A DNA stretch of 63,969 nt, filler included, from Octopus bimaculoides (Eukaryota): assembly GCF_001194135.2 (NCBI RefSeq). It is 4 parts of 4 records of this genome, joined end to end, with 100 filler letters (N's around TTAATTAATTAA, not from the genome) between each part and the next. Parts side by side here need not be neighbours in the genome. Positions count along the whole stretch, not along the records: positions 1 to 22,501 come from NC_069007.1; positions 22,602 to 51,673 come from NC_068986.1; positions 51,774 to 61,251 come from NC_068990.1; 1 more part is not named here. One strand, given 5' to 3'. This document shows, piece after piece, positions 3,001 to 61,351 of this stretch. Position 1 is the first letter of the stretch; each line of letters opens with the position of its first letter. The position numbers and the translations under genes are program-made. The notes under the pieces are model-generated. The model saw only the letters and a program-made list of their open reading frames with translations, ran no database searches and was not told where the DNA came from.

Positions 3001-3386
3001 GAACCCCCTGCACTGATAGGAACTGTATCGTATGTAGATTTAGCCCACAAACGAACTGCAAAACCAGAAATGTGGTCTATAGTATAAGATGTACAGAGGG
3101 ACGATGCAGAAATAAGACAATGACATATGTAGGCGAAACAGCAAGGAGCATAGGGGAGCGGGCAAACGAACATTGGAGGGAACTTAAGGAAGGGAAGAAC
3201 TCATCAGATCTGTACCAGCACGCTGAGCAAGAACATAGAGGCTCAATCAACAACATAGAGATTAAAATCTTATCTACACATAGCAGTGATGCAGCACTTA
3301 GACAAATTACTGAAGCTACACACATAATAGAAGAGAAACCTAGCCTGAATAGGAAACTAGAATGGAACACTAACACACACCCCTAA
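3001..3386 (+). mobile_element. Penelope-like element C-terminal GIY-YIG endonuclease fragment (5'-truncated at a (TA)n tract)
   Basis: Uninterrupted frame PCTDRNCIVC...NVVYSIRCTEGRC...YVGETARSIGERANEH...LYQHAEQEH...KILS...RQITEATHIIEEKPSLNRKLEW. It contains the VVY/YVG GIY-YIG core, catalytic R and E, the LN motif and the CCHH residues typical of PLE endonucleases. The ORF track's upstream residues are just microsatellite. Confidence 0.9.
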
Positions 3387-4170
3387 CANNNNNNNNNNNN
3401 NNNNNNNNNNNNNNNNNNNNNNNNNNNNNNNNNNNNNNNNNNNNNNNNNNNNNNNNNNNNNNNNNNNNNNNNNNNNNNNNNNNNNNNNNNNNNNNNNNNN
3501 NNNNNNNNNNNNNNNNNNNNNNNNNNNNNNNNNNNNNNNNNNNNNNNNNNNNNNNNNNNNNNNNNNNNNNNNNNNNNNNNNNNNNNNNNNNNNNNNNNNN
3601 NNNNNNNNNNNNNNNNNNNNNNNNNNNNNNNNNNNNNNNNNNNNNNNNNNNNNNNNNNNNNNNNNNNNNNNNNNNNNNNNNNNNNNNNNNNNNNNNNNNN
3701 NNNNNNNNNNNNNNNNNNNNNNNNNNNNNNNNNNNNNNNNNNNNNNNNNNNNNNNNNNNNNNNNNNNNNNNNNNNNNNNNNNNNNNNNNNNNNNNNNNNN
3801 NNNNNNNNNNNNNNNNNNNNNNNNNNNNNNNNNNNNNNNNNNNNNNNNNNNNNNNNNNNNNNNNNNNNNNNNNNNNNNNNNNNNNNNNNNNNNNNNNNNN
3901 NNNNNNNNNNNNNNNNNNNNNNNNNNNNNNNNNNNNNNNNNNNNNNNNNNNNNNNNNNNNNNNNNNNNNNNNNNNNNNNNNNNNNNNNNNNNNNNNNNNN
4001 NNNNNNNNNNNNNNNNNNNNNNNNNNNNNNNNNNNNNNNNNNNNNNNNNNNNNNNNNNNNNNNNNNNNNNNNNNNNNNNNNNNNNNNNNNNNNNNNNNNN
4101 NNNNNNNNNNNNNNNNNNNNNNNNTATATATATATATATATATAGAGAGAGAGAGAGAGAGAGAGAGATA

Positions 4171-4475
4171 GTGAAAGCACATGGCTTAGTGGTTAGGATG
4201 TTGCACTCATGATTGCGAGATCGTGGGTTCGATTCCCAGACCAAGCATTGTGTTGTACTCTTGAGTAAAGCACTTCATTTTACATTGCTCTGCAATCATT
4301 TCAACATCTGACATGTGGCACCCGTTGCACCTGCACAGGTAATGTTGATCTGATGGAGAGAGTGAGCTTATGTCTACACACACATTTGATTACTATAAAC
4401 AAATCATTTTGTGGTTGTTCGATAAGAAATTGTCAAACCCTCAAATATCATCTAATGACAGGAGTCCATCATAGT
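4171..4475 (+). mobile_element. tRNA-derived SINE
   Basis: Pol III A box TGGCTTAGTGG and B box GGTTCGATTCC, followed by the CTTGAGTAAAGCACTT central-domain motif. The head is related to the copy at 22793. Confidence 0.8.
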
Positions 4476-5125
4476 TCAGTTTAAAATGTATATATTACCT
4501 TACAAGAACCAACTCTGCCCAGCCCTTCATAGTGATTCCTTCATCCCTCAGCATTTAGCTGACCCTGCTCACCTCTCCTATGCTTTGTAGTTCTATACAA
4601 TGCCTGGTGACCCCTGTCCATGCTGTAAAGTGGTTGCTGTTACGAATGGCATCCAGATATTAAAACCATGCCAGACATTGGAAATTAATGCATTCCTTGG
4701 GCACACTGAATCTGGAATCTGGATGTAAAATGATGATTATGATATATGTGTGTATATGTGTGTGTGTATATATATATATATATATATATATATATATATA
4801 TACTGTGAAACTTAATTTAATTTTAATTTTTAATAAATTGAATATAATTGAGTTTTTACCTGTAAATTTGGATTTTNNNNNNNNNNNNNNNNNNNNNNNN
4901 NNNNNNNNNNNNNNNNNNNNNNNNNNNNNNNNNNNNNNNNNNNNNNNNNNNNNNNNNNNNNNNNNNNNNNNNNNNNNNNNNNNNNNNNNNNNNNNNNNNN
5001 NNNNNNNNNNNNNNNNNNNNNNNNNNNNNNNNNNNNNNNNNNNNNNNNNNNNNNNNNNNNNNNNNNNNNNNNNNNNNNNNATATATATATATATATATAT
5101 ATACACACATATATATATATATATC

Positions 5126-5507
5126 GTGGCACTCTGTCGGTTATGACAGTGAGAGGTCCAGTTAATCTGATCATTGGAACAGCCTACTCATGAAATTAAT
5201 GTGCAAGTGGCTGAGCACTCCACAGACATGTGTACCCTTAACGTAGTTCTTGGGGAGATTAAGTGTGACACAGAGTGTGACAAGGCTGACCCTTTGAATT
5301 ACAGGCACAACAGAAACAGGAAGAAAGAGTGAGAGAAAGTTGTGGTGGAAGAGTACAGCAGGGTTCGCCACCACTCCCTGCCGGAGCCACATAGAGCTTG
5401 AGGTGTTTTCACTCAACAAACACTCACAATGCCCAGTCTGGGAATCGAAACCATGATCTTATGACTGTGAGTCCGCTGCCCTAACCACTGGGCCATTGTG
5501 CCTCCAC
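5126..5507 (-). mobile_element. tRNA-derived SINE
   Basis: Minus strand begins GTGGAGGCACAATGGCCCAGTGGTTAGGGCAGCGGACTCACAGTCATAAGATCATGGTTTCGATTCCCAGAC (A and B boxes), followed by a non-tRNA body. Confidence 0.8.
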
Positions 5508-58709: not shown

Positions 58710-59961
58710 GGAACAATGCTAGCAATTTCAAGGAGGAAGAGGAGATTGGTCAATACCATCAACCCTATTATTTGACTGGTGCTTTATTTGCTTTATTTTA
58801 TTTACCCTAAAGGGGTGAAAGGCAAAGTACATGGAACGCTGGAATGAATCTCATGAGGCAATCCTTTCTGACACTGTAAGAACTCTGCCCATCCAGCACC
58901 TTTGATAATGGTTTCAAATTGTGGTGCAAGGCCAGCAATTTCAGGAAAGGGTTTAGTTAATTATATCGACTCTAGTGTTCAACTGGTACTTATTTTACCA
59001 AGCCTGAAAGGATGGAAGGTGAAGTTGACATTAGCAGAGTTTGAGCCAGAGGAAATGCTACATCATAAGGGCTTCTGATTTAAACACAAGACCAGCAATT
59101 TTGAGAAGGGATTTATTTGGTACCACTGACCCTAGTACTTGACTGGTATTTTGATTTATTGCCTCTGGAAGGATAAAAGGTAAAGCAGATTTCAGTGGGA
59201 TTTGAACAAGATGATAAACAGCCAGAAGATATCGCACAAGACATTTTCATATTTTTTTGCTATGATGTGGTTTGTGAGGCTTTGAAACTTTTACAGTATA
59301 CATATGTAATCATCATCATTTTACATGCTGGCATGGGTTGGACAGCTTGACTGGAGCTGGTAAGGCAAGGGGCCACACCAGGCTCCATTGTCTGGATGCC
59401 CTTCCTAACACCAACCACTCCACAGAGTGTACTGAGTGTTTTCTATGTGGCACCAGCACTGGTATCAATTCTGCTGTGACAGACAGGTCTTCTTGAGTAC
59501 AGCAATGTACCATATATCTCAGTCTTTAGTCATCTCCTATGTCAGGCTCAGTGTCTTGAGACTGGCCTTCAATACTTTGTCCCATGTCTTCCCAGGTCTC
59601 CTTCTTCCACAAGTTCCATTCACTTTATATACATATACACATATCTATCATTATCACCATCATTGTGTCAATGTCCACTTTTCCATGCTTGGATTGATCA
59701 AACGAAATTCATCGAGGTATATTTTCTAATAGTAGATGCCCTTCCCATTGCTCACCAACACCTATTTCTAAGCAAGATAATATTTCTCTTTATCCTCTTC
59801 AAACATGAGCAGCACAAATGGGTGAATGCATTTTCATGGAAATTTGCAAATGAATGATACACCTTGTATGATGGCAATATCTGTAAATAATTAGCATGAG
59901 CACAATATGTAAATACAAGGGTGTAGCAATGCACACACATATACATTGACAATGTGTGTGT

Positions 59962-60630
59962 AAATCTCGCTTTATTTTTATTCCTAATGGCTTTAAACCA
60001 GTCAACGACTTCTATACTATTAGACCATTGTACTAACCTAGTAGCATTTCTGACTTTAGCATTGATTTTTCCTAAAATTTCTTTACTAATAATACCAATT
60101 TCTGATTTTGCTGTGTCAATAAGTCTACATTCAGGATTAGATAGGAAGTTCTTTTTATGGTCTTTAATAGTTATAAAGGCCTTTTTTTGCCGGGGAGGAC
60201 CTCTATTTTTTCTATCTAATTTAAGCCTAGCGGCGAAGATGCTTGCTTCTTTATTAATGTCGTTATAAACTTGTGGTCTAGCTTTAATATAATTATTAAT
60301 AATGTTGTTATGTAGAAGTTGTATGTACTGTTTTCTACAAGATTAAGTTCTCGGTTTTATCAGAAAAAAGTGCTGTTTTTTTGGAACTTTTTATGTATTT
60401 GATGTCATTTTTCAGTTTCTGTTGGAAAGTGTTAAAAGACTTAGGAAATTTTATTGTTTATAAGCTTCAGTAGGTCCATTTCGAAGTCTTCTAAGGCCTT
60501 GATTTTCAGAGGGAATTTCTTTGATTTAATTCCATAAAATATGTTCTCTGTAGTAGCCGCTTCCATGTAAAGGCTTTCCATATCATACGCTTAAAAATGT
60601 CTGTAATTTTCTCCAAAAGTTTCTTAGAGT
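59962..60630 (-). mobile_element. Penelope-like element reverse transcriptase N-terminal fragment
   Basis: KRMIWKAF...FYGIKSKK...EDFEMDL...FQQKLKNDIK...FSDKTENL, then a stop-free stretch INNYIK...INKEA...AFITIKDHKKNFLSNPECRLIDTAKSEIGIISKEIL...QWSNSIEVVDWFKAIRNKNKARF. It is truncated just before RT motif A. Not shown in the ORF track because it lacks a start codon. Confidence 0.85.
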
Positions 60631-61041
60631 ATATATATCTGCGTATATATGTGTATGTGCATATAGAGATGTGTATATGAACATAATGATGTGTGCGTTT
60701 TTGTGTATGTGTTTTTATTTGTATATACGTTTTCCGTGGATGTATATGCATTTGCATATAGAGATGTATATATGAGCGTAGTGATGCGTGCATGGGTATA
60801 TATGCGTGTGTATGTGTGTGTATGCGTAGACACATATATGTGCGTTTTGTATGTATATATACACGTGTGTGAGTATATACATACATATATATATAGAAAT
60901 ATATACATACATGTGTGTGTGTGTGTACATGTATGTGTGTGTGTATATGTGTGCATATGCGGATTCTATGAATGAAGTATTACTTTCATCATGCCTATTG
61001 GAGTAATTTCCCTTTATTCAATGGATTTTTTTCATAGCGTT

Positions 61042-61116
61042 TTATCTTAATAACTGATGAGATGCCGGAGCAGACTTCAGCTTCGGTATCCGAAACTCTG
61101 AGTTTTATTATGATAA
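61042..61116 (+). ncRNA. Type I hammerhead ribozyme, intact core, in a PLE pseudo-LTR-like element (about 60965-61205)
   Basis: Stem I TTATCTTAATAA/TTATTATGATAA (11 of 12 pairs). CTGATGA (61054-61060). 11-bp stem II GATGCCGGAGC/GCTTCGGTATC (two G-U) with an 8-nt loop and one extra C. GAAAC (61092-61096). Near-palindromic stem III ACTCTGAGT. GUU triplet; predicted cut after 61104. Confidence 0.85.
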
Positions 61117-61351
61117 CCAACTAATTCTCACATATTATATTTATAGATAAATTCCTCAATTTTATATAATATCGAGGTCTCATTCATTCTTTTGTTGTCA
61201 TACTATTATTATTATTTATAATTATTATTAATATATATATATATATATATANNNNNNNNNNNNNNNNNNNNNNNNNNNNNNNNNNNNNNNNNNNNTTAAT
61301 TAATTAANNNNNNNNNNNNNNNNNNNNNNNNNNNNNNNNNNNNNNNNNNNN

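Follow-up and report, generated by a model that had tools for sequence, protein, structure and literature searches.

What are the short hammerhead-ribozyme and fold-back inserts that sit in the microsatellites of the octopus genome? We addressed this in a 63,969-nucleotide stretch of Octopus bimaculoides DNA (assembly GCF_001194135.2; hereafter the window, meaning the whole stretch), which joins four parts of four records, has a GC content of 36.5%, holds 4022 N and is dense in microsatellites. An original prediction had combined these inserts with fragments of Penelope-like element (PLE) reverse transcriptase (RT) and GIY-YIG endonuclease (EN) into one system of mostly non-coding, retrozyme-like satellites. 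We consider it likely that the hammerhead and hairpin inserts are dead-on-arrival 3' ends (pseudo-long terminal repeats, pseudo-LTRs) of several independent EN-bearing PLEs, mainly of the Hydra clade, lying in (TA)n. Directly visible in the sequence data are the motifs, the inverted copy and its tail on one side, the flanking tracts, the clade motifs and a read depth that rises towards the 3' end; only the insert at 36068 (family C) looks possibly non-autonomous.

We searched the window with a strict type I hammerhead descriptor (core, NUH cleavage site, a palindrome in stem III, and at least 4 bp in each of stems I and II) and, as a null, searched 200 block-wise dinucleotide shuffles of it. 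Two motifs matched, at 36480 and 61054, against a mean of 0.02 in the shuffles (196 of 200 had none and four had one). When the cleavage site was relaxed to any base, three motifs were found, versus 0.035 in the shuffles. The full set of type I features (core CUGANGA, GAAA, a NUH site and stems I-III) is present at 36480 and 61054:

36474..36534, plus strand: intact type I hammerhead of family C, with stem I of 6 bp, stem II of 5+6 bp, palindromic stem III ATCATGAT and predicted cleavage after 36528.
61048..61110, plus strand: intact Hydra-type type I hammerhead of family A, with stem I of 6 bp, stem II of 11 bp plus one extra C, stem III ACTCTGAGT and predicted cleavage after 61104.

Dimeric PLE hammerheads are said to have been described by Lunse and colleagues in 2017, and a model in which PLE hammerheads dimerize through a palindromic stem III has been published. 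In folding predictions, the stem III palindromes of the two intact motifs form duplexes (-7.2 and -7.9 kcal/mol) rather than isolated hairpins, which is consistent with that model.

A NUH site excludes G, and the core bases of a hammerhead matter for the ribozyme. The importance of C3 and G8 is documented (PMC11167929). The remaining loci (14752, 8043/8018, 52220/52242 and 51025) each carry a substituted core or cleavage-site base and, judged from sequence, we read them as decayed relics:

14748..14782, plus strand: minimal type I hammerhead (core 14752) with an extra base after A9, stem II of 4 bp, stem III ACGT and G at the cleavage position (position 17), within a ~200-bp element at 14680-14885.
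50968..51031, minus strand: decayed type I hammerhead of family E, core at 51025, with G12 changed to A.

At 8043, G12 is changed to A and stem III is broken, while its inverted arm at 8018 has C3 changed to A together with a deletion. Both arms of the fold-back at 52158 have altered cores, CCGATGA and CCAACGA. A covariance model built from metagenome sequences alone found these two arms (E of 3e-6 and 1e-4), having been seeded on the same stem III; below E=2 it returned both arms and 61054 only, and loci with other stems III were not recovered. Thus two of the five hammerhead loci originally predicted (36480 and 61054) are intact and the other three decayed, and the sixth, decayed locus at 51025 (minus strand) had been overlooked. 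At least four sequence families among the five loci had been proposed as well, and a count of four is borne out, 7938 and 61054 being one family. As a separate observation, a 16-nt word of the 3' flank of the 51025 locus recurs near 41530 (minus strand), in a region that also has CTGATGA. CTGANGA sites at 41568 (minus), 30759 (minus) and 53664 (plus) were tried as hammerheads and failed the structure test.

The five predicted fold-back or inverted elements are all real, with arms 89-96% identical. Each has an inverted truncated copy head to head with a direct copy and a 55-115-nt tail on one arm only, and the flanks are mostly (TA)n. That the elements adjoin (TA)n or (CA)n was also confirmed: of 15 element ends, 13 are no more than 20 nt away from a dinucleotide run of at least four units, compared with 11.9% of window positions, a count that is somewhat circular because the ends were set partly by the dinucleotide tracts. 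The elements, and the single 3' end related to one of them, are as follows:

7878..8132, unstranded: fold-back of family A in which two decayed Hydra-type hammerheads, with cores at 8018 (minus) and 8043 (plus), face each other head to head; it has its tail on the left arm and is flanked on each side by (TA)n.
52157..52381, unstranded: fold-back of family B in which two decayed Hydra-type hammerheads, with cores at 52220 (minus) and 52242 (plus), face each other head to head; it has its tail on the right arm and is flanked on each side by (TA)n.
60963..61208, plus strand: 3' end of family A, with part of the 3' untranslated region (UTR), the hammerhead and a tail of ~95 nt, then (TA)n.
36066..36717, plus strand: family C, with a short inverted copy at 36068-36108 and a partial tandem at 36147-36292 / 36571-36717; (TA)n on both sides.
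1716..2006, unstranded: fold-back, family D copy 1, arms 1781-1881 / 1905-2006, with a one-sided tail to ~1728 and no hammerhead core.
6456..6790, unstranded: fold-back, family D copy 2, arms 6545-6658 / 6673-6790, with the tail on the left arm and no hammerhead core.

The elements at 7938 and 61054 share hammerhead and tail and so form family A; those at 1805 and 6545 form family D, in which no CTGANGA core occurs on either strand. For each of the two hammerhead fold-backs, folding predicts a single long hairpin that spans the whole region (-86 and -128 kcal/mol, z about -18) and would preclude the ribozyme fold. The family C tandem copies are 95% identical and have a 424-bp period, ~1.3 units, 31% GC and a single intact hammerhead; neither profile nor tblastn searches detected a PLE open reading frame (ORF) in the 424 bp. 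An 'ATYIG' peptide in family C was rejected, as it needs two frameshifts and has no profile or tblastn support. The family C pattern had 0 matches among metagenome contigs, and five 11-12-mers of families C and D were unmatched in the available part of the Craig et al. supplement, where line breaks and divergence limit such a search. An inverted, 5'-truncated copy with a tail is the published anatomy of PLE insertions (PMC8557442, PMC3846280), for which self-priming has been proposed (PMC3846280).

Coding remnants of PLEs lie in the window as well. We confirmed both of the PLE fragments in the original prediction and found three more that it had not listed:

59962..60633, minus strand: N-terminal part of a Hydra-clade PLE RT, frameshifted, with WKAF, DKT and KDHK motifs, stopping before the first catalytic motif.
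3000..3386, plus strand: C-terminal, 5'-truncated, Nematis-like GIY-YIG EN remnant (linker CX4CxxC, CCHH motif), bordered by (TA)n to the left and an assembly gap to the right.
11392..12562, minus strand: Hydra-clade remnant from the RT C terminus to the EN, split by another repeat at ~11565-11790.
32670..33177, minus strand: Hydra-clade EN remnant, a profile match.
15734..15847, plus strand: weak C-terminal Hydra-clade EN remnant (9 bits; tblastn E=0.001).

We placed the EN and RT pieces in clades by motif and profile comparison rather than by a tree with named references. The RT piece covers the N-terminal third of the ORF, upstream of the catalytic motifs, and reads IWKAF, SDKT and KDHK. 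The Hydra clade is defined by DKT (in place of DKG) and RWK motifs (PMC8557442), and SDKT and IWKAF are of this kind. Against a profile made from 120 relatives, among them 107 with DK[TS], the piece reaches 124 bits, and 118 of the 120 relatives of its full-length match have a CxCx4-7C motif; the window copy itself has no EN. It aligns by eye motif for motif with the published octopus element Hydra-1_Obim, yet belongs to a different family.

The EN domain is stop-free over 3000-3383 (plus) and has a stop directly after its CCHH motif. Its Pfam GIY-YIG match (E=0.0017) is below the curated cut-off; it has 1529 relatives at E<=0.001, of which the two best named are Octopus proteins. It scores 188 bits on a profile of its own relatives versus 19 bits on the Hydra profile. 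A C-terminal EN, a CX2-5CxxC linker and CCHH are features of the Nematis/Neptune type, and all are present; an RT-bearing relative (P0004) has its EN C-terminal to the RT. In Fig. S2 of PMC8557442, the three Nematis rows look, by eye, like the EN piece in their short end and their short spacer behind CxxC, and the Neptune rows match the spacer less well. Assignment to Naiad, with an N-terminal EN, was ruled out, as the EN ends in a stop and follows the RT in P0004. The stretch expected to hold this element's 3' UTR and hammerhead is an assembly gap.

The Hydra EN lacks CCHH and has a CxCX5C linker (PMC8557442), whereas the EN at 3000 has CCHH; the RT and EN pieces therefore come from different elements. 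A single element joining 59962 and 3000 was rejected on these grounds (Hydra versus Nematis-like), and the idea of one system finds no support. The three additional Hydra remnants were found with a profile of 120 Hydra-like proteins, on which the reversed window scored at most 0 bits, and they make coding PLE debris commoner in the window than first thought. No hammerhead core was evident downstream of these three, by eye or in a CTGANGA search. Between the RT piece and family A, at 60634-60830, lies a degenerate tandem with a unit of ~95 bp, maybe a small satellite family; go-back joints matching it are present in contigs from other loci.

To relate the hammerheads to coding elements we turned to metagenome contigs and host reads. 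Families A and B have a stem III of the form ACTC-N-GAGT and extra bases at the stem II junction, the Hydra type tabulated in PMC8557442, and share with that clade the hammerhead near the 3' end, the tail and the (TA)n target. A scan for this hammerhead type gave at least 121 metagenome loci, 80 of them with full flanks; motif, junction and EN counts refer to the loci listed. Hydra EN coding sequence ends 105-212 nt upstream, on the same strand, in 11 of 27 structured motifs versus 1 of 94 unstructured ones (p=1e-7), or in 8 of 24 structured motifs without the redundant L095, L106 and L109. Most of these motifs come from one group of related families and are thus not independent events. One contig (L054) holds a full tandem of EN, hammerhead and next ORF, and another (L020) has an antisense RT head to head with a sense EN-hammerhead, the layout of 59962-61208. 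As to the covariation that the original prediction called for, stems I and II do covary among the metagenome relatives (12 of the 27 motifs aligned; 8 of 15 pairs changed on both sides; 0 of 500 shuffles), although kinship inflates this figure. In the three family A arms of the window, stem II stays paired with mostly one-sided changes, as judged by eye.

Host reads were analysed for 59955-61210 at 80% likeness, in two DNA runs (including X1 and X6) and two RNA runs. Depth climbs from RT to hammerhead to tail in both DNA runs; in X1, summed contig depth is 0.6-6k for the RT, 40-56k for the hammerhead and 100-278k for the tail. Summed contig depth is not copy number, but divided by a single-contig depth of 30-65 it suggests, roughly, tens to about 150 RT-bearing copies, about a thousand with the hammerhead and several thousand with the tail only. 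In eight contigs the ORF goes on beyond 60633 in the direction of its start, showing that longer RT copies exist. In one X6 contig, antisense RT is joined directly to the sense family A tail, with 3-nt microhomology at the join. None of the 40 best-supported of 366 read differences falls in the core or in stems I or III. The RNA runs X21 and X22 are cDNA libraries, a kind that can miss small circles, and about 6% of each was sampled. They gave 472 and 418 reads, of which 4 and 1 were at least 99% identical; the reads lie on both strands, come almost all from other copies and in 91-94% of cases continue into unrelated sequence. The cleavage-defined RNA ends looked for were not seen, as neither run had end pile-ups for family A. 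For an anole PLE, reads ending at the cleavage site were likewise absent although its ribozyme cuts in vitro (PMC11167929). The run search listed no RNA run for 59955-61210, which is not evidence on expression.

Taken together, the Hydra-type hammerhead, the 3'-rising depth and the RT-tail contig of family A favour truncated ends of coding elements over non-coding retrozymes. The alternative nearest to the original prediction is that retrozyme-like elements, both non-coding and non-autonomous, account for most loci and that they are transcribed, cleave themselves, circularize and use PLE enzymes, with family C (36066-36717) as the best candidate. This we judge improbable. Family C does have a partial tandem of 424-bp period, 31% GC, an intact hammerhead and no PLE protein match, and so fits the 150-450-bp low-GC units of PMC7229834; a preprint derives animal retrozymes from pseudo-LTRs (Li et al. 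2026, bioRxiv 10.64898/2026.07.22.740005), and hammerhead depth exceeds RT depth about 10-30-fold. However, a retrozyme is by working definition an element with two hammerheads in tandem, an arrangement seen at no locus of the window; a tandem of two truncated copies would produce the family C layout too, and truncated pseudo-LTRs likewise have no coding sequence. For family A, depth rises stepwise up to the 3' end, the tail is joined to RT elsewhere, a go-back joint is absent among the best 15 of 30 joints, and the RNA reads have the two-stranded, run-on character described above. The claim of mostly non-coding satellites is not supported, given the missing tandem hammerheads and the tie of family A to a coding Hydra family. 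A different proposal, that the fold-backs, chiefly the hammerhead-free family D, are DNA transposons resembling miniature inverted-repeat transposable elements with TA targets and that the hammerheads are passengers, seems to us very unlikely. Family D has long inverted arms without hammerhead core or PLE protein match, and no exact 11-12-mer match in the available Naiad, Chlamys and Hydra consensus files; its arms are nevertheless unequal and almost meet at the centre, its copies share the left end and differ at the right, unlike terminal inverted repeats, and families A and B have the same shape yet carry Hydra-type hammerheads. Chance matches in AT-rich, repeat-rich DNA are scarcely credible as a source of the motifs. 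Only one of eight folded motif regions has a z-score beyond -2, allowing one core mismatch adds three unconvincing matches, and hammerhead families are absent from the best 150 of 266 Rfam rows for the window and from three targeted single-motif scans. Against chance stand the excess over shuffles, which already refutes it for 36480 and 61054, a family that is multi-copy in two DNA runs, and motifs of the same type, which occur in published Hydra elements and, in unrelated contigs, lie downstream of PLE endonucleases.

Several points weigh against truncated PLE ends as well. The link from RT to family A is one contig, through a tail that other families may share, and a second joint (60634/61055), seen in both DNA runs, is ambiguous in orientation. 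The RT piece and the hammerhead are separated by 330 bp of microsatellite-like DNA and may thus be two insertions. Continuity with a full RT-EN ORF comes to one junction contig for family A and none for B; in the host, nothing links families B, C, D and E or 14752 directly to coding DNA. In the metagenome, 16 of 27 structured motifs have no EN nearby, several of them with short flanks. The 10-30-fold excess of hammerhead over RT depth would also fit some non-autonomous spread.

If the inserts are truncated PLE ends, their anatomy may be explained as follows. The GIY-YIG domain would nick AT-rich DNA on both strands, and RT would start at one of two sites downstream of the hammerhead, a choice that would leave the tail on one side only. 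RT would usually halt early, leaving most copies as tail and ribozyme alone. The inverted copy could come from self-priming after a snap-back, or else from priming at the second nick, with joining at microhomology. The hammerhead would act in the tandem transcript of the parent element, probably as a dimer through its palindromic stem III. Genomic copies that stand alone or head to head are probably uncut and decay neutrally. For another PLE, in vitro work found that both strands of AT-rich DNA are nicked and that RT has two start sites, which account for the tail; hammerhead mutants still insert, cleavage being dispensable (PMC11167929).

The head-to-head junctions, in the window as in metagenome copies, often lie close to the ribozyme (5-25 nt from its core), and those of unrelated families fall at the stem I 5' edge. 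In both hammerhead fold-backs the junction is 11-12 nt upstream of C3, with the two cores 24 and 21 nt apart, and the largest depth steps in host DNA (4.05- and 4.94-fold) fall at the hammerhead 5' edge, although subfamilies that diverge upstream could also produce such a step. In the metagenome, an antisense hammerhead lies 5-18 nt upstream in 4 of 31 copies versus 0 of 82 controls, and none lies further up by the same test. Under a loose 8-mer criterion the clustering is not significant (6/32 versus 7/82, p=0.19); it is significant only under longer, post hoc criteria (3-4/31 versus 0/82, p=0.005-0.02), and short-read assembly favours short fold-backs. L090 and L091, head to head ~1.3 kb apart on one contig, are a counter-example, and L006 has a diverged antisense copy ~130 nt upstream. 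We tentatively suggest, as a minority possibility, that the hammerhead fold serves as a structural stop or snap-back signal for PLE reverse transcription, apart from cleavage, and that family C may besides be a cephalopod non-autonomous retrozyme. Such clustering is unstated in the available parts of the literature searched, most subscription papers lying outside the search. Were it genome-wide, it would offer a testable handle on how PLE inverted structures form and on the purpose of the hammerhead, both left open in the available text of PMC8557442 and PMC11167929. In a nested palindrome at L089:220-460, maybe an assembly artefact, hammerhead copies are inverted at two points, one immediately 5' of the core and the other precisely at the palindrome of stem III.

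Much of this system is already published: the PLE class, its hammerhead, the microsatellite bias, the inverted-copy and tail anatomy, and an octopus Hydra element. Hydra-clade PLEs, including Hydra-1_Obim (Craig et al. 2021, PMC8557442), share with the window the DKT and W-K motifs, (TA)n insertion, a short tail and, near the 3' end, a type I hammerhead whose palindromic stem III has 9 nt, though published tails are 30-40 bp long and those of the window 55-115 nt. The window RT family and families A and B differ from Hydra-1_Obim in sequence (another stem II, stem III and tail) and are thus further families. Published minimal type I hammerheads have an extra base between 9 and 10.1 and a palindromic stem III, as at 14752, and occur as many families per genome, mostly single truncated copies, as in the window; their stem III is shorter than at 36480 and 61054, and their opposite-strand pairs are 100-700 bp apart rather than 21-24 nt. 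Metazoan non-LTR retrozymes (Cervera and de la Pena 2020, PMC7229834; Li et al. 2026) resemble family C in unit size, GC and intact type I hammerhead, but form arrays with at least two hammerheads; the window has no such array, circular RNA was not seen in the two cDNA libraries, and the inverted copy and tail point to ordinary PLE integration. The literature drawn on also includes PMC4209133, PMC13282606 and PMC8967140.

As to the proposed large ribozyme repertoire, most copies are decayed or lie in a long hairpin, cleavage-defined RNA ends were absent from the two runs, and thousands of such motifs per animal genome have already been reported (including PMC7229834). What did hold is that the inserts are PLE-derived ends, that they carry type I hammerheads and target microsatellites, and that the hammerheads of these PLE families escape Rfam. 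Octopus repeat papers count Penelope-like elements, the 2026 one without mention of ribozymes in its available text. The window adds uncatalogued Hydra- and Nematis-type PLE families, which may already be in the Repbase or Dfam octopus libraries or in preprint supplements.

Other features of the window include a minisatellite at 8628-8801 (66-bp unit, 2.6 copies) and a degenerate (TTCG)n/(TACG)n satellite of ~2.6 kb at 61352-63968. A stop-free frame of 459 codons at 17238-18614 (plus) is intact and apparently a host exon; it has no Pfam match at E<=0.01. By eye, there seem to be coding remnants of non-LTR retrotransposons at 38750-40430, 42590-43960, 20810-21105, 23220-23515 and 50150-50700, some of which terminate at a tract of (AAT)n or (ATG)n. 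Complementarity between 20810-21105 and 40195-40490 is 86%. Repeats that we take to be SINE-like (short interspersed nuclear elements) adjoin microsatellites in many copies, at 4170-4440, 5125-5505, 10010-10235, 19120-20150, 22790-23130, 55655-56010 and elsewhere.

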